A DNA stretch of 64,000 nt from IMG/VR virus record IMGVR_UViG_3300020577_005857; one strand, given 5' to 3'. Origin of the DNA: an uncultured virus (IMG/VR IMGVR_UViG_3300020577_005857). Lineage: Duplodnaviria > Heunggongvirae > Uroviricota > Caudoviricetes. Below the pieces are notes generated by a model. That model was not told the DNA's origin and did no database searches. It saw nothing but the letters and a program-made list of their open reading frames with translations. Shown one piece after another: positions 15,844 to 62,469 of the stretch. Position 1 is the first letter of the stretch; each line of letters begins with the position of its first letter. Made by a program: the position numbers and the translations under genes.

Positions 15844-16246
15844 GGAAAAGATTCTTGTTGAGTTGGCGCAACTGAAGGCGGGCTTAGGACTTGTGATTAA
15901 GGCTACTGCTCCGGCGCAGTGGGATAATTTTCTGGTGGCTACGGGGCAGAGTGCCACGCTTGCGCCTACGGCGGCTCAGGTGGCGCAGAACCCCGGATTG
16001 TATTATGGGACACGCTATGATTCGCTAGCGGGCTCTGTGACTCAGCCGGTGGTTGAGGTATTCCTTCCTCCTACGGAGGACGCGGAGGGCAATAAGACTT
16101 ACAAGTTCATTGGGGGTACGCTCTACGAGTGGGCCAAGGCAGATCTCGAAAGCTTCCTAGTGTACTATGCCACCCGCTATAGGGTTTCGTTGAATATGTT
16201 GGCCCTTAGCCCGGAGCAGCGTGCTAAGATGGGCCTGAATGGCTAG
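15833..16246 (+). CDS. Hypothetical protein
   Basis: Coupled ORF directly upstream of the terminase. Confidence 0.55.
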   Translation: MTNEEKILVELAQLKAGLGLVIKATAPAQWDNFLVATGQSATLAPTAAQVAQNPGLYYGTRYDSLAGSVTQPVVEVFLPPTEDAEGNKTYKFIGGTLYEWAKADLESFLVYYATRYRVSLNMLALSPEQRAKMGLNG

Positions 16247-18185
16247 AAAGCGTCCACAACGTACCGAGCAGATCTTTCATGCGGGCACTCTGGAAGCAAT
16301 TCCAGAGAATGCCCGCATCCTTATTGCTCCGCAAGAAGGCCCGCAGGAAGACTTGATGCTCCTGGAGGAGAAGGAGATTTTGTTCGGTGGGGCGAAGGGC
16401 GGAGGCAAAACTGCTGGGGCTCGGATCTGGGCGCTCAAAGGCAATCCGGACCTGCCGCAAGATGATCCGGTAAACGTAAGTTACGTCTACCATGCAGCAT
16501 ATCGCTGCCTTATCCTGAGAAAAAACTATCAGGATATGATGGACTTCATTGATAAGGCCAAAGACATCTACGGGCCTGCCTATGGAGCGGTGTGGTTTGA
16601 CGATGGGTACTTCGAGTTCCCAAGCGGGGCCAAGATGGTTGTGGGCCACATGGCTGATGAGAATGCCTACATGAAGTACATGGGGCAGGAGTGGACTCGG
16701 ATTATTGTAGAAGAGGTAACGCAGATCCGGTCCAAGGACTTGTATCTTAGGATCTATTCCTGCGCACGTACCGTGTTTAAAGAGCTGCGCACTCAGATAT
16801 TGCTCACGGCTAATCCTGAGGGACCTGGATTCTATTGGGTGCGTGAGCGCTTCATGCGCCATCCCAAGACCGGCAAGGCGGTTCCGGCGCGGACGCGCAT
16901 CGAGGAAGAGCTTCTCAATCCATTCACTGGCAAGAAGGAAATCATTACCCGCATCTTCTTGCCTAGTAAAGTCTCGGACAATAAGATTCTGTTGCAGAAT
17001 GATCCTGGGTATGTGACCATGCTGCTGAGCTTGCCGGAGAATTTGCGGCAAGCATACCTGGAGGGCAACTGGGAAGTCCTTGGCGGGAAGTACTTCCATA
17101 ATTTTAGACCGAATGGTCCATTGGCAGAGGAGCCGGAGTGGGCTAACCATGTGGTGGACTCTACGAGTGTATGGGTAATGCCATGGTTTCGCAAGTGGTG
17201 TGGGCTGGACATCGGATTCCATCACTGGATGGTGTGCCACTGGTTTGTGGAAAGCCAGGATGATGAGCGGATCTACGTGTATCGTAGTCTGCGGGCGCGG
17301 TACATGGGTATGCAGGCTTTTGGCGAGCTATGGGCTAAGAAGGCACTTCAGGATTTTGAAGCCGACGGGGACAATCAGATCACTATCTGGATGTCCCATG
17401 ATGCCTTTCATAAGAGGGATTCCAGTCCGGAGGCACGGGATATCTCGCCTGTGTCACGGTTCGTGGCTGGGGTGGAATCCGTGCTGGGAGCGCAGTCGGT
17501 ATTCGTGCCCACGCAAGAGGATATCCCTAACGAGCCCGATTTCTGGGAGCGTATCGAGATCCAAAAGAATGTGAAGGTCATTGTTCGCAAGGCTCCAATG
17601 CACAAGCAAACCAGTAGTGAGTATGTACGTGAGCTGTTGGATTGGAAGCGGCCACAACTGAATGCCGAAGCCTATGATGAAGGCTATGCCCTCAGTTTGC
17701 TGGTGCAGGAGGGCGGCGGCATAAAGTACTTGGATTACATGAAACGCCACATCGTGGCAGCCAAGGAGCCTAACCTTCCGAAGGTGCGGATATTTGGGGA
17801 TCAATGTAGTGAGCTAGTGAAGGGTATCGAGGATGCCGTCTATGACGAAGATCGGCTGAATATCGCCAAGGTAGACTGCAACGCGGACACTGGGGAAGGC
17901 GGAGATGATGACTTGCAGGCCTTCATCTATGGTCTGAGTGGATACCGCAAGCAAGTCCGTAACACCATGCCCGCGCATGTAAAGATGCAAATGAAAGTGC
18001 ATGACATGATGAAGAAGCATGGCTATCAGTTGGATGGTAGCCAGCGCATGCAGGTACAGTGGCAAGCGCTTATGGAAGCCCGCAAGGAAGACAAGTTCAA
18101 GACGGCTCACATTCCACGAAGATCTTCCCGGTGGAGGCCCAGAAATCCTAACCCCATGGATGGCTATAAGGATCTGATAAACTAA
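16239..18185 (+). CDS. terL: Terminase large subunit
   Basis: Q motif PQEGPQ, Walker A GGAKGGGKT, Walker B IIVEE, coupling motif TANP, nuclease GLDIG and C-terminal DDDLQA. Confidence 0.92.
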   Translation: MARKRPQRTEQIFHAGTLEAIPENARILIAPQEGPQEDLMLLEEKEILFGGAKGGGKTAGARIWALKGNPDLPQDDPVNVSYVYHAAYRCLILRKNYQDMMDFIDKAKDIYGPAYGAVWFDDGYFEFPSGAKMVVGHMADENAYMKYMGQEWTRIIVEEVTQIRSKDLYLRIYSCARTVFKELRTQILLTANPEGPGFYWVRERFMRHPKTGKAVPARTRIEEELLNPFTGKKEIITRIFLPSKVSDNKILLQNDPGYVTMLLSLPENLRQAYLEGNWEVLGGKYFHNFRPNGPLAEEPEWANHVVDSTSVWVMPWFRKWCGLDIGFHHWMVCHWFVESQDDERIYVYRSLRARYMGMQAFGELWAKKALQDFEADGDNQITIWMSHDAFHKRDSSPEARDISPVSRFVAGVESVLGAQSVFVPTQEDIPNEPDFWERIEIQKNVKVIVRKAPMHKQTSSEYVRELLDWKRPQLNAEAYDEGYALSLLVQEGGGIKYLDYMKRHIVAAKEPNLPKVRIFGDQCSELVKGIEDAVYDEDRLNIAKVDCNADTGEGGDDDLQAFIYGLSGYRKQVRNTMPAHVKMQMKVHDMMKKHGYQLDGSQRMQVQWQALMEARKEDKFKTAHIPRRSSRWRPRNPNPMDGYKDLIN

Positions 18186-40450: not shown

Positions 40451-40599
40451 TCTGTTAGGTCCTTTCCACAATCCTTGCAATACGTCTTTTTCTCTTTTGA
40501 ATCGTAGACGATAGAGTCTCCCTCTAGTATATCGTCATTGCACTCCCAGCATCGGCCCTTATACTTGGCCAGCACGGAGAAGAAACGTTTCATGTTCAT
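40447..40599 (-). CDS. Small zinc-finger protein
   Basis: AKYKGRCWECNDDILEGD...YCKDC. Confidence 0.55.
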   Translation of the reverse strand: MNMKRFFSVLAKYKGRCWECNDDILEGDSIVYDSKEKKTYCKDCGKDLTE

Positions 40600-41153
40600 G
40601 CTTGCCTCAATGAAGCAAGGTAAATCTCTAAGTTTTGTAGCACTGCGGCCTTGTTCCCCGCATCTTGGTGCCCAGAGTTCCAGGGTTGCGGCCATAGAGT
40701 CGCTGTGCCGCCAGCACCCCGCCACTTGTCCACGTTGACATCGTAGTCATCGACCAAGATTTTGTTTGGCCCCGCAATAAACTGCTTAGATGCGCCAAAC
40801 AGGATATTTTTCCCGAACTCTGGGAAGTACTTCTTTATGGACGCGCGTTTCTCGGGCACGCAATACTTGCTCTCACTGGGCGAGGATAGCACACAGATAT
40901 TATCTGTGTACTTGAGGCAAGTCTCTACCAGGGTACGAGCATATGGCAAAGGTTCCATATTACTCCAGAAGCCTTCATAGTTCAATGGGGCCCAAAATGC
41001 CTCAGGTGTAATGTTCCATAGCTTGGCCATATCCCAGTGCCCATAGTTGCGGGCCGCAAGGTATGGGCTAGGCCGGTTGTGCGCCCTGGAGGTAGCCGTC
41101 ACGAAATCAAATAGAACTCCATCCATGTCAATGAATACTCTAGGTCCAGTCAT
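40596..41153 (-). CDS. 5'(3')-deoxyribonucleotidase, HAD superfamily
   Basis: FIDMDGVL motif I, LSSP, EKR and LVDDY motifs. Confidence 0.85.
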   Translation of the reverse strand: MTGPRVFIDMDGVLFDFVTATSRAHNRPSPYLAARNYGHWDMAKLWNITPEAFWAPLNYEGFWSNMEPLPYARTLVETCLKYTDNICVLSSPSESKYCVPEKRASIKKYFPEFGKNILFGASKQFIAGPNKILVDDYDVNVDKWRGAGGTATLWPQPWNSGHQDAGNKAAVLQNLEIYLASLRQA

Positions 41154-41770
41154 ACCTTGCCCTCCAGAACATCTCGTTCCTGTTCCAGGTTCCGATTCCT
41201 TGCTGCCGCTTCGGTGAACTTCTTTTGGTATCGCGCGCGTAACTTGCGCACGTTCAGGAGCATGACTTCCAAATAGCTGGCGGAAACAGCATCGGCCCCA
41301 ATCCTTGCGTACCAAGAGGCATCTCCTATCTCTTCCAGTACGTGGATGTTATCTATGGGGGCTCCATAATAAACATGCTTCTTGATGATGTCTAGGAACT
41401 CACCGGCCTCCGTGGCAAGCCCTATTGCCGCGTGCAAGAGGCGCACTGTGGGTAAATATTGGAGGCGCTTCATTGCATCGGTGTAATCATGGGGCTCGGT
41501 GACCGTGGCGGTTTCTTGCAGGGCCTCCATATCTCGATGCGTTTCAAAATGCGCCTGCCGGAAATCCGTGCCATACACGGTAGACTCCGGTTGAATGGTA
41601 ATGGTTACCCCTGCGGCTGCTTTCCACGCTTCCTGGATTTGGGGCTTCAAGCCATCCCACTGGGGGAGTGCGTCACCCGTTGCAAGTGACTTTCCTCCTG
41701 TATGCTTGGAGTAGGCTTCATATAGAGCCTGCCCTACTTGATCTTTGAGCCGGTCTTCTGCGAAGGCCAT
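41150..41770 (-). CDS. MazG-like nucleotide pyrophosphohydrolase
   Basis: LLHAAIGLATEAGEFLDIIKK...EEIGD...NVRKLRARY. Confidence 0.88.
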   Translation of the reverse strand: MAFAEDRLKDQVGQALYEAYSKHTGGKSLATGDALPQWDGLKPQIQEAWKAAAGVTITIQPESTVYGTDFRQAHFETHRDMEALQETATVTEPHDYTDAMKRLQYLPTVRLLHAAIGLATEAGEFLDIIKKHVYYGAPIDNIHVLEEIGDASWYARIGADAVSASYLEVMLLNVRKLRARYQKKFTEAAARNRNLEQERDVLEGKV

Positions 41771-44158: not shown

Positions 44159-47100
44159 TCAAATCTTTATTTCTTCCATATCGGCCCAGGACATGCCGGG
44201 TTTGTTGATGCTGAGTTCTGCTTCACACCAGAGGCCTTCTCCATTGGGAAGGATCAGAATCTCTGAGGGGCGTTCCATCTCACGCTTCACAGTGACCAAG
44301 CATTCATCCACATAGCGATCCGGGCACTCAAATACCAAGGCATCGTGAATCGGGATGATGAGCCCATACTTCTCTAGAAGATCCTGCTCCTGCATGCGGA
44401 TCATGGTTTCCTTGATCATTCCGAAAGCATCATTTGCTGGAGTGCAGGCAATGATTGCCTCTGCATCATCCCCAGGGCCAAAGCACCAGTGCATGCCATC
44501 CGAATGCACTCGGATGACCTCACCCGGCTTTACTCTGTAGCCAGCTTCCACAGGGAACTTATCCACGCAACAAGAGAAGCGCCGAACGAAACCATGACGG
44601 GTAATCAATATCCCATTGTTGCGATCTACGAACATTACGATCTCTTTGCGCCAGCGGCACGTAATAGGAAACTGATTGTCAAGGCCTTTGAACACGCTAT
44701 ACGCGTAATCAAGGCTGGGTAGGAATTCCTCATTCTCATGATAGAACCTAGGAGGCTGCATGCCAAAGCCATACCCAAGAATTGCAGGCTTAGCCTGCTT
44801 TCCACGGACGAACTCGAACGGAACCTTGATCCCACCGGGGCCCGGATATAGTGCCCGTTCATCCTTGCGAAAGTCCTTCAGCACTCGCATGAGGTCTTTA
44901 TCAGAAAGCTTCAGCAAGTCATCGGACTTGGCGAGATTCACAAGCTGGGTTGCAGCAATAAAGCTATGCATATCCAGCCGTGCAAGCCGCATATAGTCCG
45001 GATCATTCGCTTCAAAGCCAGTGGTCAACACATGAAATGCTTTGAAATCGGCTTCGATAATCCGATATCCAGGGCGGGGCTCGATTATGGTACGAACCAG
45101 TTTGCCCAATTCATACCGCTGGCTAGGAATCAGGCACTTATTGCACACATAATGCCCCGGCCTTGACTCTTCCCATACATGCTTGCAGCCGCGAACCTTC
45201 CCAAGCTCCTCGCCTGGACTGAAGTGAATCTTTCGCTTGAGATGCTTAGGGAAGGTAAGCGCCGCTGGATTGACCGCAGTAAGCTGGCCCGTACCGGTAT
45301 TGTCATCGTAGAATGGGTGGACCCGCATGTCCTCCTTGGGAGCCCAGCCTTCCACATACGTGGACCGCATCTTACGCAGCTCCCGAATCTCTACCGCAAG
45401 CTTCAGCACATCATCCTTGGTACTGGATGTGAGCCGATCCAATTCTTTCTTTTCCGTGGTAGGCTTCTTGCTCTTGAAGTCCATGGGAATGTACCACTTC
45501 ATGCCACGTAGGGCAGCCTTTGAGGGATTGGCCCCAAGGGAAGCTTTCTCCTCGCTTACGCGCCACCCTATATAGTTCAAGAGCTGCGGAGAGCTATTGG
45601 AATTGAAGTCTTCCAATTCGCCCCAGCGCTTCTCACTGCCAATGATTCCACCAAACTGATCCTCAATGGGGAAGAACTGGCGCACATAAATAGTTTCTCC
45701 ACAGGCCACACGATCCGGCAAGCCAGCCTCGAAGTCTGCCCTCAAACTCTTGAAGAGTTCACCAATACGTTTCTTAGTGGGCTTCTTGCCATTTGACTCA
45801 GCTTCTTGCGTGGCGGTAATGGTTGCCTCTGATTCCAGGCGGGGTTTCTCCGCATCCAGGATCTCTTTGGGGGTGCCCTTCAGGCCTTTAGCCTGTTTCG
45901 TAGGCTTCAGATGCTCAGGGACAATGACATTGATGTCATCATTGACATAGCCTTCGAGGGCCAACAGGCACTCCCGCAGCTCCAATCTTCTCTGGTCATT
46001 GATAGGAATGCCCCGCACCTGCAATGGGTCCAACACCTGAGTGTGCAAGGTATAGACTTGCCGCTGGTAGCCCCACAATACATCCTTGGCTGTGGGGCTG
46101 GTGTGCCGCATGGTTCCCATCTGCCTACTCAGGAACTCGAAGATCTTGATGGGTTCGATTACGTCACGCACGCCGTAGGTGCGCAAGTCATGCTCAAAGA
46201 GATACTTCCAGGGTCCATCCTGTGGGCTTACAAAGGAACTCACATATTGTAGACCACGGGGTAGATCCCGTTCCCAATGGCTCCACATACGCATGCCATC
46301 ATGCCATTCCCCATTGAACTTAATTCCAAGGTTCCGGATGATGTCTCGGTCGAAGCCTCGACCGTTCCAGTCCAGCTTCCGATTACCAAGTTCCATGAGC
46401 TTCTTGATGGGTCCCATGAGACTATAATCCCAACTACTCACCAGGGCATGGCCCTCGCCAAGGGAGATTTGGAACTGAGTGATACTGCCTGCGGCCTTCT
46501 CAAACTCAGACTCGTCACCCTGCAACACACTCAGGGGAGTCTCGAAATCATAGCTGATTATGAGATTAGGATTCTCCTCACACATGCGGATAGCCAGATC
46601 CCAATCGTCACGGGTTGCGAATTTCTTGACGCCAGGACCATCAACAGTCTGCGATATATCTTGTTGACTTCGCAGCATTGCCAGGGCAATATCCCGTTTC
46701 AGAACGCTATAGAAGCCCCAGCCGCCGCCGGATTGCTTTTCGGTGCGCGCACCAGACTCTACATTCTTGCGCTTTGAGCCGCGAATAATGAAGCTGGGAT
46801 GATAGGTTCCGATCACGGGGAGCCCACCGTACTCCCTGCGGGCAGGTACGATGTAGCCCCTGCCCTGTTCAATATTGGTGTGGTAAAGGCCGGTAAGCTC
46901 ATGCCACGCCACACCGCCGAGGGCTACCAAAACCCGTGGCCTATACTTCAAGATAAGCTCCGCATTCCGTGGCCTGCCATCCGCCAAGTATTCAGCTTCC
47001 CAGGGGCTTCCTTCAAGCCAATTCCTGGGAGGCTGATACCATGCAGCATTGCTGATCAGGGCCTTGCTGCGATCGATCCCAAGCTCACTGAAGGCTCGCG

Positions 47101-47368
47101 CCAATACACTACCTGCCGGGGCCCATGGCCGGAAGGGAAGGCCTGTGGCGTTCTCGTGTCCACCAGGGGCCTCACCTACAAACATGACACCTAGGCTGCC
47201 ATTGCCCTCAGGCTCCATGAGTCGAGGCATAACCCCGCCCAGCTCGTAGCCAGGGATCAAAGAGCCAAATCTCTTGGCCTCCCAAGTGGGAGCACCCCAA
47301 GGTGGGTCTGCCACCGTAGTGGGGCCTTGTGAAGGCCGCGCCAAGATATCCGCTATATTCTCAGACAT
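44159..47368 (-). CDS. Family A DNA polymerase with N-terminal UDG-like (family 4) domain and 3'-5' exonuclease
   Basis: UDG motifs VGEAPG..E...PF and TYHPS; exonuclease YDFET, WNGRGFD, YGVRD; polymerase motif A EADF, motif B RGKQAKPAILGYGFG, motif C IHDALV. Confidence 0.9.
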   Translation of the reverse strand: MSENIADILARPSQGPTTVADPPWGAPTWEAKRFGSLIPGYELGGVMPRLMEPEGNGSLGVMFVGEAPGGHENATGLPFRPWAPAGSVLARAFSELGIDRSKALISNAAWYQPPRNWLEGSPWEAEYLADGRPRNAELILKYRPRVLVALGGVAWHELTGLYHTNIEQGRGYIVPARREYGGLPVIGTYHPSFIIRGSKRKNVESGARTEKQSGGGWGFYSVLKRDIALAMLRSQQDISQTVDGPGVKKFATRDDWDLAIRMCEENPNLIISYDFETPLSVLQGDESEFEKAAGSITQFQISLGEGHALVSSWDYSLMGPIKKLMELGNRKLDWNGRGFDRDIIRNLGIKFNGEWHDGMRMWSHWERDLPRGLQYVSSFVSPQDGPWKYLFEHDLRTYGVRDVIEPIKIFEFLSRQMGTMRHTSPTAKDVLWGYQRQVYTLHTQVLDPLQVRGIPINDQRRLELRECLLALEGYVNDDINVIVPEHLKPTKQAKGLKGTPKEILDAEKPRLESEATITATQEAESNGKKPTKKRIGELFKSLRADFEAGLPDRVACGETIYVRQFFPIEDQFGGIIGSEKRWGELEDFNSNSSPQLLNYIGWRVSEEKASLGANPSKAALRGMKWYIPMDFKSKKPTTEKKELDRLTSSTKDDVLKLAVEIRELRKMRSTYVEGWAPKEDMRVHPFYDDNTGTGQLTAVNPAALTFPKHLKRKIHFSPGEELGKVRGCKHVWEESRPGHYVCNKCLIPSQRYELGKLVRTIIEPRPGYRIIEADFKAFHVLTTGFEANDPDYMRLARLDMHSFIAATQLVNLAKSDDLLKLSDKDLMRVLKDFRKDERALYPGPGGIKVPFEFVRGKQAKPAILGYGFGMQPPRFYHENEEFLPSLDYAYSVFKGLDNQFPITCRWRKEIVMFVDRNNGILITRHGFVRRFSCCVDKFPVEAGYRVKPGEVIRVHSDGMHWCFGPGDDAEAIIACTPANDAFGMIKETMIRMQEQDLLEKYGLIIPIHDALVFECPDRYVDECLVTVKREMERPSEILILPNGEGLWCEAELSINKPGMSWADMEEIKI

Positions 47369-54807: not shown

Positions 54808-56280
54808 TTAAGCATACTTTTTGAGGGGAGTGTCCATGATTTCCTGATACAGACTGTAACGGTTTACCCGCATTGTCTGAACAAGATTTCCAATGCTGTA
54901 CTCATCCACAAATCCAGTAATCGGAAACTTCTCGAAAGGGATACTAGCGGCCTCCAGCTCATGAGTGATGACATCAGTGTCCCCATTCACTCTATAGTAA
55001 TAGACCGCATCCTCACGCTTGAGCCTTGCGGTAGTCTTCCGATACTCATGGCTGAAGGCCGGGTACGTATTGTGACCACCATCCGTGATCAGGGCAATGC
55101 CATCGAAATCCAAGCCTTGTGCGTTAGCGAACTCAAGCCCAGCACCCACAGAAGTGAAGCCATGAGGATTCAGAAGCCTCGTAAGCTCCTTGATCTCAGC
55201 AAGAGTCTTGCCTGTAACCTCACGCCCAAAAGCCTTGAAATTAAAGAACACGAGCCACACTCGGCCCTTTACCATACGCGCCAGTGTAGCAGATACTAAG
55301 CGGCCTATCTCAATGCTCGTCCGCATAGAGGCCGACATATCAGCTAAGACAAGCCAGTTGCCATCGATGCTCCCAGCTCCGAGCTTCCGCTCTTGAATCT
55401 GAGCCAAGGCTTCCTTCACATCTTCCTCTTCCACCATCTCCGCCGCCTTGCCAGCCTTAAACAGGTTCGCGTTGCCTTTGCTCTTAGCCAAGGCTTCAGC
55501 ATAGGCAGCCCTCACCGCTGTGTCCTTATCCATACCCCAGTGCTTCAAGACCTTTACACTATTCACAAGGTCCGAAGCACTCATGCTTTGGATCACGGCA
55601 ATGATTGCCGACGTGTTTCCCTTGATCTGGGGCATCACTGACGTGGCTACCAGAAACGGAATCTTATAGCGCATGATAGTACCCGCAGCCTCTACCGGGT
55701 CCATATTCGGAATCAGTTTGAGGGCACCTAATGCCCCACCCACCTCAGGCAGCTCTTCCCCTTTCAGCTTGAATCCAAGCATGGCAGCAGCCAAAGGACT
55801 GGGCTTCACATGGAAATCGACATACAGCTTCCGAAGGCTGGCCCTATGCTGCAAGACTGTCCGCTCCAGTCTAACGGGACTAGCTTCGATCTTACGGATG
55901 TAGGCCTCGGCCACTCGGCCAATACCTCTCCATGAAAGCCCAGCCTTCCAAGTCTTGGCCGCAACATGCTGCTTCACCAGTGTCTTGGCAAAGGCCACCG
56001 CCCGCACCAATTCACGTGGCCCTAATGCCATCAGGTGGCCATAGCTATTGGCAACTAGTTCGGGCTCCCGCGTAGCGGTGAGCCCCAACACAGGTAGGGC
56101 CACCTTAGCATCACGTATCTGTCCCTTTATATGATTCCAGGCCAAGAAATGATGAAAGAACAACGGATCACTCTTCATGGCCTTGTCTGCGATTGGGATG
56201 TATTCACTTAGGTCTCGGTGCGGGCTCTTATTCAGGACCGCTACCAGTTCATTGATATCGAAGGAGAGTTCTTGAGTCAT
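54808..56280 (-). CDS. Ro60/TROVE-like RNA-binding protein with C-terminal vWA domain
   Basis: About 490 aa; helical N-domain (DPLFF...IRD; MSASDLVNS); vWA MIDAS LADMSASM, T and ITDG; adjacent to structured tRNA-like RNAs. Confidence 0.75.
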   Translation of the reverse strand: MTQELSFDINELVAVLNKSPHRDLSEYIPIADKAMKSDPLFFHHFLAWNHIKGQIRDAKVALPVLGLTATREPELVANSYGHLMALGPRELVRAVAFAKTLVKQHVAAKTWKAGLSWRGIGRVAEAYIRKIEASPVRLERTVLQHRASLRKLYVDFHVKPSPLAAAMLGFKLKGEELPEVGGALGALKLIPNMDPVEAAGTIMRYKIPFLVATSVMPQIKGNTSAIIAVIQSMSASDLVNSVKVLKHWGMDKDTAVRAAYAEALAKSKGNANLFKAGKAAEMVEEEDVKEALAQIQERKLGAGSIDGNWLVLADMSASMRTSIEIGRLVSATLARMVKGRVWLVFFNFKAFGREVTGKTLAEIKELTRLLNPHGFTSVGAGLEFANAQGLDFDGIALITDGGHNTYPAFSHEYRKTTARLKREDAVYYYRVNGDTDVITHELEAASIPFEKFPITGFVDEYSIGNLVQTMRVNRYSLYQEIMDTPLKKYA

Positions 56281-56289
56281 ATATTTTTG

Positions 56290-56460
56290 CCGGGACACTG
56301 AGTTATCAGAAGCTTTATTGCTATTTTGCTACCCCCCCCCCCCCCACTAAAAGCTCCCTAAGAGCCCTTAGTGGAGGGGGCCGGACTCGAACCGGCAGTC
56401 TCATTCGTGAAATGAATGTGCTTTAACCGCGCTTGTATACTCCTGAAGAAAGCGCCCCGG
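56290..56460 (-). ncRNA. Y-RNA-like element containing a circularly permuted tRNA(UUC)-like domain
   Basis: Terminal stem CCGGGGCGCU/AGUGUCCCGG; inner stem UCAGGAGU/GCUUCUGA; anticodon arm CAUUC-AUUUCAC-GAAUG; T arm GCCGG-UUCGAGU-CCGGC; acceptor closed by a long hairpin. Confidence 0.7.
56332..56345. repeat. C14 (G14 on the transcribed strand) homopolymer
   Basis: 14 consecutive C. Confidence 0.9.
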
Positions 56461-56816: not shown

Positions 56817-56958
56817 TGGGCGCTGAGTAAACCGAAGATTCATCCCCCAGGGTGTTACCCCTCAAGGACAAGACAGGACTCGAACCTGTAACCCTCTGAT
56901 CCGCATTCAGATGCTCTATCCACGTGAGCTACTTGTAGCTCCGGCGAAAAGCGCCCAC
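56816..56958 (-). ncRNA. Y-RNA-like element with embedded tRNA-Arg(GCG)-like cloverleaf
   Basis: Terminal stem GUGGGCGCU/AGCGCCCAC; inner stem CCGGAG/CUUCGG; cloverleaf at 56868-56936 with D arm, UCUGA-AUGCGGA-UCAGA, ACAGG-UUCGAGU-CCUGU; 5-bp acceptor; no CCA. Confidence 0.75.
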
Positions 56959-57208: not shown

Positions 57209-58270
57209 CTACTCGACCACCACGTAATCCGCAGCCACTTCCACAGAGTCGCCGCCCCAGTTGAACGTAATGAACATAGGATTGAATGGCAACCCATCTC
57301 CATCCCATCCAGCTATGGCTGGTGTAGCTTCACGCCCCTTAATCCGCACATAGCCCTTGCCGATCCAGGGAGCCCGATGCTGGTTTGTATAGCGGCTGGG
57401 AATCGTCCGGTAAAAGATCCGCTTCCCGTTCTTGCCCCAAGGAATTCCGGTGAAAGAAAGTGTGAGGTAATCCTTGCCCCAAGTTTTGTCCGCGCCGGTT
57501 CCGCCCAATATGAAACGTGTAATCGCCCCACCAAAATACTTGGAGAGCCGAATCATTTTCTCCGTGGTGGTCTCCTTTGGGTAGAATCTGTCATAGGCAT
57601 TCAAATAGAAATCTAGGATCTCGTCATCCAGGTTCCCATGCCATTCTGGGATATGCCCCCGAATCCAATCTCCCCGCACAGCGCTTGACCTATTCATCGC
57701 CTCAAGGATAATCGGAGAATATGTTGCCACGGCCCTCCGAAAATCACTAGAATTCATGAGGAAGTCCTCCCGCCATATGGCAGAGCCGCCACCAAACATG
57801 AGAGTTTTATGCAATTTCTGGAAGTCCCTCACATAGAGATCCGTCTTCGGAATCCAGTCATCGCCGAACATGCTCTCATCAGTCAAGTTCTCAAGCCGGA
57901 TACGAATGTCCACCCCAGGTTTGTAGTGAGCGCACACCCTCCGCTCCAGGCATTCCAGTTGCTTCAAGGCCATGACATCAGCGATATCAACGCTGCCCTC
58001 ACCCTGTTTGCTGGCACCCCAGGGAATAAGGATGGGGATAGGTGCCCCAGCATCCATAGCCTTCCGCACCACGGCGCGTATCTCCACTAAGCCCTCCGGA
58101 TCAGGCATGGGTCCATATCGCTGCTGTTTTGTGCCGATCAGCTCAGACACCACAGCCTCGAACATGACTTTCTTGTCTCCATTGACGGCCCCCGGGAACT
58201 CCAGTTCCATCATCTGAAGTATTGTACCCAGATAAGGATCATCACTATTGGCGCTCAGCTTAAGACTCAT
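57209..58270 (-). CDS. DIT1/PvcA-family (isonitrile synthase-like) enzyme
   Basis: AGAPIPILIPWGASK, DIADVMALKQLECLERRVCAHYKPGVDIRI, LTLSF and APW align by eye with PvcA AGEPIEFVLPAFPAK, DMAERLSLSFL...YAPGAKITV, RLS and TPW. Confidence 0.6.
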   Translation of the reverse strand: MSLKLSANSDDPYLGTILQMMELEFPGAVNGDKKVMFEAVVSELIGTKQQRYGPMPDPEGLVEIRAVVRKAMDAGAPIPILIPWGASKQGEGSVDIADVMALKQLECLERRVCAHYKPGVDIRIRLENLTDESMFGDDWIPKTDLYVRDFQKLHKTLMFGGGSAIWREDFLMNSSDFRRAVATYSPIILEAMNRSSAVRGDWIRGHIPEWHGNLDDEILDFYLNAYDRFYPKETTTEKMIRLSKYFGGAITRFILGGTGADKTWGKDYLTLSFTGIPWGKNGKRIFYRTIPSRYTNQHRAPWIGKGYVRIKGREATPAIAGWDGDGLPFNPMFITFNWGGDSVEVAADYVVVE

Positions 58271-58553
58271 AAGTAATCCACTCCCCTCCAACTTGAAGTT
58301 CTGCCTTCATACGGCAGCCCAGAGAGATGCCGGATTCCCGGTCTATGACATAGATGTTGTAAGACTCTGTGTCTTGCGCCACAATAGCCTTTCGGAGAAT
58401 CGTGATCACAATTACGCTTCTGGTAAACTCTACCTCCATATCATTCATGGCATAGAACTTCCCAGAAAACTTGATGTGCCCCCGGGCCCCAATATAACCA
58501 GTCTCATCCGGGTTCATCCCCGGAGGTATGCCATCCGAATCAATAATGTTCAT
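58260..58553 (-). CDS. Hypothetical protein
   Basis: Coupled ORF. Confidence 0.5.
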   Translation of the reverse strand: MNIIDSDGIPPGMNPDETGYIGARGHIKFSGKFYAMNDMEVEFTRSVIVITILRKAIVAQDTESYNIYVIDRESGISLGCRMKAELQVGGEWITYES

Positions 58554-59419: not shown

Positions 59420-60577
59420 CTACCACAAAGTGTTTTTGTCCGCAGAGCTGGGGCCATTCGACACATATCGAATGCTTTCACCCAGCCTATCAAAGAAAAG
59501 CTCCTCCATTTCTTTGAAATTAGTAGGAATCCAACCCTCTCCGGCGTAGTCTACCCACTTCAGATCTTTTCCTGCCACGTCCCAGTGAGTCAAAGCAAAA
59601 TTGAAATTTCGAACTTTCTTAGTTTTCACAGTAGACGCAGCACGTGCAATAGCTAGGCTATACCGCAAAGCTTGGAAGTCCAGAAAACCTTGGCGGAATG
59701 CTCCTTGAAATTGTCCCCATTGATTGTGCTTCTCAGGAATTCGCTTGTCTGGCCTCCCCGGTGGATATTCGCTTGCAAATGGTCCGTGCCCATGCCGCGT
59801 CATGTAGGTTCGCGTAACCAATACCACTTCAGCATCGTAAACACTGCCGAGGGGAACCATGTCCAAAGCCCGTCTTGGTGTGCAGTCAGTCCAAGTGTTG
59901 TGCGGGGCCGTCCCCCAGGTTTCATCCAGCAAGATACCCTGTGCGCCCTCGAACACTACCTTATCCATTCGTCCCCATGGATCGACACCACGTTGCAACC
60001 TACTCGCGTACTCCTTCATTGTTTCCAGTACTTCATCAACCGAGGGCATATATCGCAGTAAGGTTGCATAGCACTCGCGAATGTCAACCAATATATTGCG
60101 AAGATCAGAAGTCCACAGATCTTTAATCCGTAGAGTAGGACGCCCGCCTAATTCCATCTCACGTGCGGCGCCAATTCCCATCCCGCAGCTTCCATGAGCC
60201 TTACACCCCCGGCCATCCTCCACATGTTTATTCCACATGCGGTGCCAAGGGGTAACTATTACCGCATTCATACTGACCCTTAGAAGATCCCAAGGATTCC
60301 AAGGAATCTTCCCCGATAACGCTTCTGCCTCACGTAAGGCCATCTCAGGGTCTACCAGCACATATGGACCCAGGTAGGTGGGAATGCCACGCAAGGTGGC
60401 ACTCCCCCATTGGGAAAATGTGTGGTGGACTCCATCATGGATAACGTTGTGGGCAGTCTGGGCACCACCATTGAAGCGGACTACCACGTCGGCCTTCATC
60501 TGGCCTGCCAAGTAATCCACCATGGTACCCTTGCCCTCATCGCCGAATCCAGCGCCCACTACAATTTTCGAAATCAT
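59420..60577 (-). CDS. Adenylosuccinate-synthetase-like (PurA fold) ligase, divergent
   Basis: GFGDEGKG, RFNGGAQTAH, HGSCGMGIG, FEGAQGILLD, TRHGHGPF, SNGP. Confidence 0.88.
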   Translation of the reverse strand: MISKIVVGAGFGDEGKGTMVDYLAGQMKADVVVRFNGGAQTAHNVIHDGVHHTFSQWGSATLRGIPTYLGPYVLVDPEMALREAEALSGKIPWNPWDLLRVSMNAVIVTPWHRMWNKHVEDGRGCKAHGSCGMGIGAAREMELGGRPTLRIKDLWTSDLRNILVDIRECYATLLRYMPSVDEVLETMKEYASRLQRGVDPWGRMDKVVFEGAQGILLDETWGTAPHNTWTDCTPRRALDMVPLGSVYDAEVVLVTRTYMTRHGHGPFASEYPPGRPDKRIPEKHNQWGQFQGAFRQGFLDFQALRYSLAIARAASTVKTKKVRNFNFALTHWDVAGKDLKWVDYAGEGWIPTNFKEMEELFFDRLGESIRYVSNGPSSADKNTLW

Positions 60578-61551
60578 AGTCTCTGAGTCTTTCCTCCCTT
60601 CACTATAGCTCCGCCTTCGGTCTTCGCCACTTCGCCGCTTACCTTCACAAGCGCAGTGGTGTCCACTCCATCCGCACTGAGGTCTGCTACACTGGCATGA
60701 CCCTCGCTGATGGCCACAGCTCCAGCGATGGTTTCGCAGATCTTCTCTGGATTATCAAGCTTGATGACATTCTGCTGGCCTAGCAGATTCACCCAATGCC
60801 GTTCTAAACTGGCATCGTCGTAATGCTGACTCAGCTTGGGAATGATGAAGAACACGTGATAGAGTTTCTGCGCATCCTCGACCACATCCGCCAACGGCTG
60901 ATCCCCTTGCAGCGCTATACCAACTAGCTTACTAATCTGTTCGGCGCTCACTACTGGATAAGCGTGTTCGTCGCCGATCACGAACAAGTAGCCCTTCTTG
61001 CCCCGCTTTGCCATGGCATCATGACTTGTGCGGTTTGCCATGAACCACAGCGCCAGTTCATAGCTCTCTTCGTAGCTGCTCCCACCATTCCGTGTAAGCC
61101 ACAGATTCGTGAGATTGTCATCGATTTCAATGCCACTCTCGAACTGCCCCACCTGAAGGGCTCCGGCCCCACCATACACGCGCTGTGCTAGATAATCATC
61201 GACTGCCCCGATCAGAATAGCCGGGTAGGCATCGCCCAGGTACTTCTTGCCGCTCAGCTTGTCGTCCACAAGCGTCCCCATCAGCTTGGAAAGGGCCTTC
61301 TGGATAATCACAGGGACGTGCCCCATGCTTCCTGTGGTGTCACAGAAGACAGCAATCGGAAGCGTTACGGGGTGCTCCGTAGAGTCGCGGCTCTCTCGGA
61401 TGGCTCCTTTGGGATCCAGGCTAGGATGTACCTTGGCTGAAACTCGCCCCCTCCGAATGTCGTCATCATGGGCAAAGGTAGCCTTCCCTGAGGAAGCCCT
61501 GCTCCTTGTCCGGTCTTCATGTTCTCTACTGCTATAGGATGTTGATCCCAT
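60574..61551 (-). CDS. vWA-domain protein
   Basis: MIDAS-like DTTGSM, GGSSYEESYELAL, YLFVIGDE. Confidence 0.8.
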   Translation of the reverse strand: MGSTSYSSREHEDRTRSRASSGKATFAHDDDIRRGRVSAKVHPSLDPKGAIRESRDSTEHPVTLPIAVFCDTTGSMGHVPVIIQKALSKLMGTLVDDKLSGKKYLGDAYPAILIGAVDDYLAQRVYGGAGALQVGQFESGIEIDDNLTNLWLTRNGGSSYEESYELALWFMANRTSHDAMAKRGKKGYLFVIGDEHAYPVVSAEQISKLVGIALQGDQPLADVVEDAQKLYHVFFIIPKLSQHYDDASLERHWVNLLGQQNVIKLDNPEKICETIAGAVAISEGHASVADLSADGVDTTALVKVSGEVAKTEGGAIVKGGKTQRL

Positions 61552-61563
61552 TCTTTTCTCCTT

Positions 61564-62469
61564 TCAATCTAGCCACTCCACAAATCGTGGAGGGCCGTAA
61601 ACTTCTTCGGCAATTCGGGTTATGCTGTCATAAGCATCCCAGGCGTTCTGCCACCTACTCCGTGGCTGCCCCATGGTAGCCTTCTCAAACCAAGGCCGGA
61701 ACTTCTTAGGCACCTCAGCTATGCCCTCAAGGCTCTTGGCAGCCATGTAGATATCGAAATCTGGCCCCACCTTGCCCTTGCGCTTCACCTCTTTGGGATA
61801 GTATTGTTCCTGGCCGGTAACTATTGCCTTGAGTTTTTCTCCGATCTTCACGGAGTAGCACCAATCCACAATCGCCAAGCCATGATGGCGTTTGATAAAC
61901 AGCAAATGTCTCGGCAATATCGCTCCATGCACAAAACCCTTATTATGGGTCTCTGCCAGCGCCGCCATAACTCGGTGGGCCATCCACACTACATGACGAA
62001 AGTCTGTTCCAGCGCCCATATACTCAAGTGGCACCGCCAAATTACGAGGAATGTACTGGATCAAATTTGAGGCCTTGCCATCCACTTTCCTACTGTCAAC
62101 AAGCTTTGGCACAAACGACGTACGCTTCAACGCAGTGAGCCGTTCCGTCTCTATATCCAGGAGATCATTATCCCCAGGGCTCAATGCCCGTTTCAGCATA
62201 AGCGGATAGTCCTTGAACACCTCAGGCCCATCCTTCAAAAGGAAGATCTCCGCGATGTCACCGGCCTCTATCTTGATTCCGCCAATACCTCTATCCACAA
62301 TAGGAGAGTTCAAGACTTGCAGTTTGGTCATAGCCTCACCACTTCGGGGGTCAGATCCATTCAGATCTGGATGAATAGCCCGCGCCAGCTCTCGATAGTC
62401 CCCGGCCTCCCCCATCGTCCACGCCATCATCAACTTCTCATACGCAGACTGGAATCTAGTTTTCATCAC
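61564..62469 (-). CDS. J-domain-like fused to a protein-kinase-fold (pseudo)kinase
   Basis: YRELARAIHPDLN (HPD motif); LMLK, HNKGFVHGAILPRHLL, IVDWCY, YYPKEV, DIYMAA. Confidence 0.75.
   Translation of the reverse strand: MMKTRFQSAYEKLMMAWTMGEAGDYRELARAIHPDLNGSDPRSGEAMTKLQVLNSPIVDRGIGGIKIEAGDIAEIFLLKDGPEVFKDYPLMLKRALSPGDNDLLDIETERLTALKRTSFVPKLVDSRKVDGKASNLIQYIPRNLAVPLEYMGAGTDFRHVVWMAHRVMAALAETHNKGFVHGAILPRHLLFIKRHHGLAIVDWCYSVKIGEKLKAIVTGQEQYYPKEVKRKGKVGPDFDIYMAAKSLEGIAEVPKKFRPWFEKATMGQPRSRWQNAWDAYDSITRIAEEVYGPPRFVEWLD

Follow-up and report, generated by a model that had tools for sequence, protein, structure and literature searches.

Why would a tailed phage carry a relative of the purine enzyme PurA directly behind a J-domain protein and a vWA-fold protein? 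The question is raised by a three-gene cassette in a 64,000-nucleotide stretch of DNA (the window) from an uncultured member of Caudoviricetes (IMG/VR record IMGVR_UViG_3300020577_005857). In the open reading frame (ORF) list of the window, three co-oriented minus-strand ORFs (62469–61564, 61551–60574, and 60577–59420) encode, in order, a 301-amino acid protein with a J-domain and a kinase fold lacking catalytic residues (gene 1, GTG start), a 325-amino acid vWA-fold protein with a metal-ion-dependent adhesion site (MIDAS) motif (gene 2, defined by the ORF list, an AlphaFold2 model, and Foldseek), and a 385-amino acid PurA-family paralogue (gene 3, PF00709). A first-pass annotation, made from the sequence alone, had described these genes as contiguous and co-oriented, with a 12-bp gap followed by a 4-bp overlap, and the ORF coordinates and junction sequences bear this out. 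At the first junction, the TGA stop codon of gene 1 is followed by the 12-nucleotide spacer AAGGAGAAAAGA (61552–61563, minus strand), which holds the Shine–Dalgarno site of gene 2 (AGGAG), and then by ATG GGA; at the second, the stop codon of the vWA gene and the first codon of the PurA-like gene share the 4-bp overlap ATGA (60574–60577, minus strand). In a consensus scan, promoter- and terminator-like sites were no more common than after shuffling of the sequence; a single weak promoter-like match (9/12) lies within gene 1 at 62196–62167, and no terminator-like site was found within the cassette. The domain calls of the first-pass annotation, namely a J-domain and kinase fold without catalytic residues, a vWA fold with MIDAS motif, and a PurA fold, were upheld by Pfam, AlphaFold2, Foldseek, and alignments, as was its statement that no other purine-pathway gene is present: none was found among 50 window ORFs scanned against Pfam (40 of them also against PHROGs), a scan that left out some small ORFs. 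Together the three genes make up a single module, coupled in translation and passed on as a unit in many tailed phages and in some bacteria. Our tentative reading of its function, which we hold to be quite possible and somewhat short of probable, is that a ligase uses GTP to join C6 of a purine to some amine rather than to aspartate, together with a vWA protein as its partner and a pseudokinase that recruits DnaK, as part of an NAD/ADP-ribose-linked conflict between phage and host.

The gene 3 product resembles PurA (EC 6.3.4.4; E. coli structures 1ADE and 1KJX) in fold, family, P-loop, and the residues H41, Q224, T239, R305, and D333. It matched PF00709 at 3.9e-52 with 177.8 bits (gathering threshold 27), residues 5 to 316 corresponding to model positions 1 to 321 of 416, and its closest solved chains were canonical PurAs (6bs7, 4.9e-29; E. 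coli 1ade, 3.6e-24). For residue-level comparison, the alignment comprised 69 distinct sequences of the phage clade, 22 cassette copies from bacteria, E. coli PurA, S-2L PurZ, and four canonical PurAs of cassette-carrying Planctomycetota genomes, the loops being aligned by L-INS-i. The roles of the residues concerned, be they in GTP binding and catalysis, in the aspartate and ribose pocket, or, for R143, across the subunit interface, we take to be those known from the E. coli literature. Within the P-loop (G12-D13-E14-G15-K16-G17; 60527–60544, minus strand), D13 and K16 were invariant (69/69), as was H41; Q224 and D333 were each kept in 68 of the 69 phage-clade sequences and T239 in 66, and position 305 held Arg in 67 and Lys in 2. 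A second set of positions had changed across the same clade: N38Q (68/69), T129C (60/69), V273H (69/69), and T301Q (64/69), together with R303, which is variable (Arg in 7/69), R143, mostly replaced by Gly, His, or Tyr, position 300, which is Trp or Phe, and position 304, which is hydrophobic. T301 and R303 are aspartate contacts in PurA. In the window copy the remade second-substrate loop reads N285...F290-Q291-G292-A293-F294-R295...D300 (59678–59725, minus strand), equivalent to E. coli T300-T301-G302-R303-R304-R305, and the C-terminal part of the protein is shorter than that of PurA. The 22 bacterial cassette copies exhibited the same pattern of kept and changed residues. In contrast, the canonical PurAs of carrier genomes had the E. 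coli residue at every key position (4/4), with Val and Pro at 300 and 304. Because of this pattern, the half of the PurA reaction that transfers the phosphoryl group looks preserved, and the second-substrate pocket and part of the 5′-phosphate site look different. GTP-driven activation of the purine 6-oxo group is likely retained, given that the P-loop GDEGKG, H41, Q224, T239, R305, and D333 are all kept. The first-pass annotation had proposed that the enzyme ligates an amine to a nucleotide, and its interpretation is partly supported in that the remade aspartate pocket would fit an amine other than aspartate.

A simpler account would see in gene 3 a plain auxiliary PurA, there to raise AMP production, next to two unrelated genes, as might be expected from the strong PF00709 match, the canonical PurAs among its closest structures, and the kept catalytic residues. 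This account is very improbable, since the protein scored far below the PurA equivalog cut-offs (NF002223, 149.7 versus 402 bits; TIGR00184, 137.4 versus 395.55), since T301, R303, R143, and V273 are changed clade-wide and kept in the host PurAs, and since the gene is linked near-obligately to the other two. Unlike PurA proper, moreover, the cassette enzyme is in every case coupled to a vWA gene, and it is a second copy: a canonical PurA is encoded elsewhere in 5/5 carrier genomes, scoring 553–582 bits as against 187–201 for the cassette copy in four of them, the fifth genome being frameshift-fragmented. A precedent for a phage-borne PurA paralogue exists in PurZ (S-2L, phiVC8), which the cassette enzyme resembles in having a probably altered substrate and in its PHROG (1211), which also holds PurZ. 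With a MazG-like gene also present in the window (41150–41770), the enzyme might be taken for a PurZ that makes 2-aminoadenine (Z) for a ZTGC genome. Passages of 10.1101/2025.10.22.683976 and PMC8342488 describe PurZ as having Ser in place of PurA D13, with S14D abolishing selectivity, and as adjoining mazZ and datZ. In our alignment the D13 position held Asp in 69/69 sequences and Ser in S-2L PurZ, in the same column; the score against the PurZ model (NCBIfam NF038379) was 52.3 versus a cut-off of 300, and no PurZ chain occurred among the 22 PDB matches. The flanking genes are those for the vWA protein and the J-kinase rather than mazZ and datZ, the MazG-like gene lies about 18 kb off, and no HD-type DatZ was found among the scanned window ORFs. 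PurZ is thus further excluded by the missing diagnostic Ser and the differing flanks, and we consider this identity extremely improbable. Gene 3 is, by its residues, a re-tooled PurA paralogue, neither PurA proper nor PurZ.

The survey of gene neighbourhoods that the first-pass annotation had called for, on the view that unlinked genes would count against it, found the three genes linked elsewhere. A vWA relative is encoded by 341 IMG/VR stretches, from which the best 80 loci were kept (contigs of 4 kb to 513 kb) and their 5-kb flanks examined. Both partners lay within 5 kb of the vWA gene and on the same strand in 69/80 loci; the remainder had only the PurA-like gene (5), only the J-kinase gene (4), or neither (2). 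Among the six loci without a PurA-like gene, two end less than 170 bases past the vWA gene (L037 and L064) and two others 1.3 kb (L079) and 1.6 kb (L078) past it. The J-kinase gene was usually first in order, and in about ten loci it followed the PurA-like gene. Linkage of the three genes is far beyond chance. GenBank phage records gave a similar picture, with 220 matches for the vWA protein, 202 for the J-kinase, and 250 for the PurA-like enzyme, the same breakdown by genus for the vWA gene as for the PurA-like gene (Mycobacterium 201, Rhizobium 10, Vibrio 6), and the trio present in about 200 matching records of Bixzunavirus mycobacteriophages. In phage Cali, for instance, the order is kinase gp251, gp252 (vWA), the small gp253, and gp254 ("PurA"). 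Vibrio phage Va1 and Rhizobium phage TM30 carry the vWA/PurA-like pair without a kinase gene. Just upstream of the pair, both encode a common Met-rich protein that belongs to no Pfam family (L002:5222–5935 in Va1, L003:4741–5568 in TM30); in such kinase-less lineages it may stand in for the J-pseudokinase.

Gene fusions were seen as well, a J-kinase joined to a vWA protein (P0172, 675 amino acids, 4 contigs) and a vWA protein joined to a PurA-like enzyme (P0171, 730 amino acids, a single 2.5-kb contig). A further apparent vWA+PurA-like fusion, in locus L115, was rejected: the N-terminal third of the vWA protein lies in another frame of this long-read metagenome-assembled genome (MAG), so that the one continuous ORF probably stems from a frameshift and is an artefact. 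Where ORFs intervene between the vWA and PurA-like genes of relatives, Pfam names 5/12, including Nudix, GIY-YIG endonuclease, AdoHcy hydrolase, and aldolase; a mini pyruvate kinase was found neither among these 12 nor in the window. The vWA family itself is large, with 621 members at E ≤ 1e-30, and 2022 when the limit is E ≤ 0.001, among 1.84 billion cluster representatives (50%-identity clusters) searched with a profile. A bacterial scan with one genome per species yielded 34 loci, nearly all in Planctomycetota and several on megabase contigs. The first-pass annotation had referred to similar neighbourhoods in bacteria, and since the coupled unit is conserved elsewhere, Planctomycetota chromosomes included, these do exist.

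The vWA protein gave no Pfam match, vWA models included, and matched PHROG 2971 (function unknown) at 2.7e-49. Its AlphaFold2 model (predicted local distance difference test [pLDDT] 87.2, predicted template modelling score 0.86) resembled, in Foldseek, integrin beta-I and alpha-I domains (E 4e-6), TFIIH p44-type vWA, and the NorD vWA domain. The MIDAS motif D71-x-T73-G74-S75 (DTTGS; 61327–61341, minus strand) and the pair D194-E195 of an IGDE strand (60967–60972, minus strand), in which D194 is the later MIDAS Asp, were located in alignments A3 and A5; D71, T73, G74, D194, and E195 were invariant in both, and S75 was fully conserved in A3 and almost fully in A5. Across 134 near-full-length cluster representatives, the motif D-x-[TS]-G-S was present in 127. 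The protein as modelled is a vWA fold with an intact MIDAS motif, a putative metal site. Its two ends are also conserved. The N terminus follows MG[GS][ST]x[YF]S...R...R in homologue alignments (61498–61551, minus strand), with a family consensus of MG[GS][ST]x[YF]SxDDYxAR; it starts with MG in 111/120 close homologues, with VG in 3 more, and with MG in 126/134 (94%) of the near-full-length representatives. The C terminus is a disordered tail (residues 303–325, pLDDT <50; 60577–60645, minus strand) that ends ...QRL here and, in the family, in (E/D)-R-(L/I) after the disordered stretch, with Arg at −2 in 115/120 and a hydrophobic last residue in 119/120 close homologues; the corresponding counts in the diverse set are 82/134 and 101/134. 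A complex prediction for the PurA-like enzyme and vWA residues 1–300, from which the conserved tail had been cut off, returned a score of 0.00 (mark 0.32) and counts as evidence neither way.

Inteins were encountered in this gene. In Mycobacterium phage Quasimodo (Bixzunavirus; L130:265–2082) and in P0173, a relative from metagenomic data, the vWA gene is split exactly at KGY|xIFIGDE, in the strand that bears the MIDAS Asp, by an intein that includes a homing endonuclease, and GenBank labels the whole intein-bearing Quasimodo gene "HNH endonuclease." Inteins favour this kind of site in indispensable proteins.

The near-universal N-terminal glycine invites a more specific prediction, protein purinylation, whereby the PurA-like enzyme would couple C6 of a GTP-activated purine nucleotide to the alpha-amine of the vWA N-terminal glycine after removal of Met1; the J-pseudokinase and DnaK would present or release the vWA client, and the conjugate would act in an NAD/ADP-ribose-linked conflict. 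Gly at position 2 favours Met excision. Besides the MG start and its surrounding motif, the replacement of T301 and R303, the aromatic and hydrophobic residues at 300 and 304, and the status of the vWA/PurA-like genes as an invariant core pair, kept without the kinase in Va1 and TM30, are consistent with such a reaction. Against it, the glycine is internal in the J-kinase+vWA fusion P0172, unless the vWA part has its own translation start; the conserved N terminus could instead serve binding or stability; and a small carboxylate substrate would suit the retained R305 equally well or better. Purinylation is a prediction from sequence, and we rate it as distinctly unlikely. If true, it would amount to a covalent protein–N6-purine nucleotide conjugate, and we know of no such conjugate as a described modification.

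The gene 1 product matched PHROG 3043 ("kinase") at 1.3e-28; its Pfam Pkinase match was weak (E 0.0035, below cut-off), and it gave no match to Pfam DnaJ (PF00226), a family found together with PF00069 in 6/50 of its homologues. In the AlphaFold2 model (pLDDT 92.9) a short helical J-domain precedes a kinase fold, for which the top Foldseek matches were PknG (4y0x, 4e-10), ASK1, and PAK1. The J-domain spans residues 1–56 (62302–62469, minus strand), with the HPD motif at residues 33–35 (62365–62373) flanked by modelled helices 25–32 and 41–54; H33-P34-D35 was nearly invariant in alignments of 24 and 35 sequences. In the kinase-like domain (61567–62292, minus strand), the VAIK-type Lys (K93) was invariant in alignment A4 and nearly so in A7, the alpha-C Glu (E107) invariant in both, and the DFG-type Asp (D202, within VDWCYS) nearly invariant beside an invariant W203. 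The catalytic loop, in contrast, reads HGAILPRH in place of HRDLKPxN. H181 was invariant in A4 and G182 in both alignments, A183, P186, and H188 were nearly invariant, and the family-wide form H-G-A-I-L-P-x-H has the HRD Asp and the catalytic-loop Lys and Asn all replaced. As HPD and the kinase fold are present and the catalytic residues lost, "J-domain pseudokinase" is a fair name for the protein.

The process in which the module works may be indicated by the neighbours of its relatives. All flanking ORFs were clustered and the cluster representatives run against Pfam; the "NrtR" neighbour model was built from over-extended ORFs and selected matches were confirmed with Pfam, so the group counts are approximate. 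Directly upstream of the cassette, a true NrtR (Nudix plus the NrtR_WHD winged helix) is encoded in L046, L036, and L021 among the jumbo-phage loci and in L093 and L104 among the bacterial ones. In several jumbo phages the interval from NrtR to the cassette holds genes for NAMPT and a Nudix protein, and the order NrtR, NAMPT, (Nudix), vWA, PurA-like, J-kinase was found in six jumbo-phage loci (L021, L042, L044, L046, L047, and L060). Neighbouring NADAR genes occur in Va1, three viral groups, and bacteria, and the upstream genes of TM30 encode HAD, PRTase_3, Nudix, and HIRAN proteins. The operon of Planctomycetota locus L109 runs DUF4291, Tpt1/KptA, x, ADP-ribosylglycohydrolase, J-kinase, vWA, PurA-like. 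When the loci were dereplicated at 90% vWA identity, a neighbour of this NAD/ADP-ribose kind occurred within the 5-kb flanks in 9/65 viral and 12/30 bacterial groups, NAMPT in 5/65 viral groups only. As a separate observation, DUF4291, Tpt1/KptA, and ADP-ribosylglycohydrolase genes are co-directional and immediately upstream of the cassette in two Planctomycetota MAGs (L109:3999–6741 and L112:6205–6783).

Two further accounts draw on this context. In the first, the cassette would be an anti-ADP-ribosylation module of conflict (or of defence or exclusion), in which the vWA and J-proteins chaperone ADP-ribosylated proteins and the PurA-like enzyme processes the released nucleotide, the phage copies acting against rival elements or host toxins. 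It would suit the Planctomycetota operons that contain ADP-ribosylglycohydrolase, Tpt1/KptA, NADAR, and NrtR (e.g., L109, L112, L118, and L119). It also recalls the NrtR/WYL operons centred on ADP-ribosylglycohydrolase (ARG) that Iyer et al. 2022 (PMC9503650) describe from planctomycetes and other phyla, operons that include vWA "chaperones"; section 3.8 of that paper places ARG-centred operons, Nudix-HTH regulators, and the vWA "chaperones" in planctomycetes, and the shared elements are the Nudix-HTH NrtR regulator, ARG, NADAR, and a nearby vWA gene. The likeness has limits: neither a PurA-like enzyme nor a J-domain or pseudokinase is named in the main text of PMC9503650, from which the words PurA, adenylosuccinate, DnaJ, and pseudokinase are absent, and most carriers are large phages of lytic type, the majority of phage cassettes being without ARG or Tpt1. 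PADLOC 2.0, TerY-P models included, returned nothing for the vWA and PurA-like proteins and weak generic kinase matches for the kinase domain (best E 4e-5). We regard this account as unlikely.

In the second, the enzyme would serve NAD+ re-synthesis or salvage, by phosphorylating ADP-ribose, or else a hypoxanthine/NAD analogue, on an oxygen at the expense of GTP and letting nicotinamide or ammonia take the place of the phosphate, in complement to NAMPT/NadM-type salvage. The NrtR-NAMPT-(Nudix)-cassette order of the six jumbo-phage loci points this way, as do the aromatics and the invariant His gained by the aspartate pocket and the alteration of 5′-phosphate contacts (N38 and T129 changed, R143 lost). 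That phages do rebuild NAD+ is known from the published NARP1–3 pathways, as set out in sections of PMC13464706. The proposed chemistry is purely conjectural, however, the retained D13 and Q224 speak for a purine lactam acceptor, the need for a vWA protein and a J-pseudokinase is left unexplained, and neither NAMPT nor NrtR was found among the scanned window ORFs. This route appears clearly improbable. The cassette is like NARP1, NARP2, and NARP3 in being phage-borne and, in some relatives, linked to NAMPT and NrtR, and possibly shares the same battlefield; homologues of Adps, Namat, Nampt, Nmnat, PnuC, and NadR were absent from the cassette and from the scanned window ORFs. The NARP3 paper (PMC13464706) concerns PnuC and NadR and, in those sections, does not mention the cassette proteins, and a preprint on a TIR-like NADase does not concern the cassette.

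Taken with the evidence above, the preferred reading of a purine-C6 ligase and its two partners would run as follows. The PurA-like enzyme would activate a 6-oxopurine nucleotide with GTP and join the activated purine to an amine; because the second-substrate pocket is remade and the partner-subunit Arg lost, we infer that this amine is something other than free L-aspartate. The vWA protein may be the dedicated partner, adaptor, or substrate of the enzyme, a role suggested by its intact MIDAS motif, near-universal N-terminal glycine, and conserved C-terminal tail. The J-pseudokinase would bind the vWA protein and, as its HPD motif is intact, could bring in the host Hsp70 DnaK. Because relatives adjoin NrtR, NAMPT, NADAR, ADP-ribosylglycohydrolase, and Tpt1, the module may serve NAD+/ADP-ribose turnover, and in a phage it would then have an auxiliary or counter-defence function, guarding or rebuilding the nucleotide pool during infection.

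Several points weigh against this scheme. An ordinary PurA would likewise conserve D13, Q224, T239, and R305; the substrate change is deduced from sequence; and the equivalence of the loops depends on the alignment, the retained Arg falling at 306 in a cruder alignment and at 305 in the L-INS-i alignment that was followed. Engagement of DnaK is a prediction. The single vWA+PurA-like fusion, on its one 2.5-kb contig, could be an assembly error, and the bacterial phyletic picture is biased, the scan having used two peptide patterns. The NAD link is recurrent, not general, because 56/65 viral groups have no NAD/ADP-ribose neighbour within 5 kb, and no NAD or ADP-ribose gene (NrtR, NAMPT, NADAR, ARH, and Tpt1 included) was found among the window ORFs scanned.

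The architecture of the module is reminiscent of several characterized systems without coinciding with any of them. In the MoxR AAA+/vWA pairs (CbbQ-CbbO, NorQ-NorD, and RavA-ViaA), a MIDAS vWA adaptor couples an ATP-driven remodelling machine to one target enzyme. The cassette shares the MIDAS vWA domain, NorD being among the Foldseek matches; in contrast, the J-domain of its pseudokinase would recruit host DnaK as the motor, and no AAA+ (MoxR) gene was found in the cassette or in recurrent neighbour clusters. The TerY-P triad consists of a vWA protein, a kinase, and a PP2C phosphatase. Like it, the cassette pairs a vWA protein with a kinase-fold protein; unlike it, the cassette has no phosphatase, its kinase lacks catalytic residues, and a J-domain is fused to the pseudokinase. 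A phage J-domain also occurs in RB43 Rki, which we take to be a phage J-protein that uses host DnaK. An overview of jumbo phages (PMC7824862) reports, in the portion available, sporadic DnaJ proteins and MoxR-vWA pairs and not this cassette, and genome announcements, to the extent of their accessible text, merely name a "PurA-like adenylosuccinate synthetase." Full-text literature searches, whose reach did not extend to the supplements of PMC9503650, found no description of the trio or of its function.

The window is that of a phage, with a large terminase (16239–18185), tail-fibre-like proteins, a Dda-like helicase, a ParB-like protein, and a PD-(D/E)XK exonuclease, and the cassette lies within its minus-strand block of replication and nucleotide-metabolism genes. 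Elsewhere on this strand, a 1069-amino acid DNA polymerase A (44159–47368) carries an N-terminal domain of the uracil-DNA-glycosylase (UDG) superfamily, that is, a UDG-PolA fusion. The MazG-like pyrophosphatase ORF (41150–41770) overlaps an ORF for an NT5C-type 5′-deoxynucleotidase (40596–41315), both on the minus strand as called; the pair is a deoxynucleoside triphosphate-pool module positionally unrelated to the cassette. A 496-amino acid protein (54808–56298, minus strand) with a weak VWA_2 match (E 0.053) has among its nearest ESM Atlas clusters TROVE/vWA_Ro60 (0.95–0.96) and is likely a phage Ro60-like protein. In the 0.9-kb gap beside its gene lies a tRNA-Arg(GCG) (56864–56939, minus strand), an arrangement that recalls Rsr/Y-RNA modules; this tRNA, outside the cassette, was the only feature detected in the window by Rfam and ARAGORN. 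A 360-amino acid ORF (57209–58291, minus strand) matched no PHROG, and its sole Pfam match was a sub-threshold one to DIT1_PvcA (isonitrile/dityrosine synthase; E 0.083).

The cassette is common, being carried by about 200 Bixzunavirus phages of M. smegmatis, by many jumbo phages, and by Planctomycetota. PurZ provides the precedent that a re-tooled PurA can alter the chemistry of a whole genome, and the cassette clade is a second, larger clade of re-tooled PurAs, with a different pocket and two unusual, near-obligate partners. Its reaction, once worked out, would probably represent a new kind of nucleotide-ligase chemistry and reveal a new phage use of Hsp70 recruitment and, should the NrtR/NAMPT/ARH context prove a reliable guide, the module would be a new player in the NAD+/ADP-ribose arms race.

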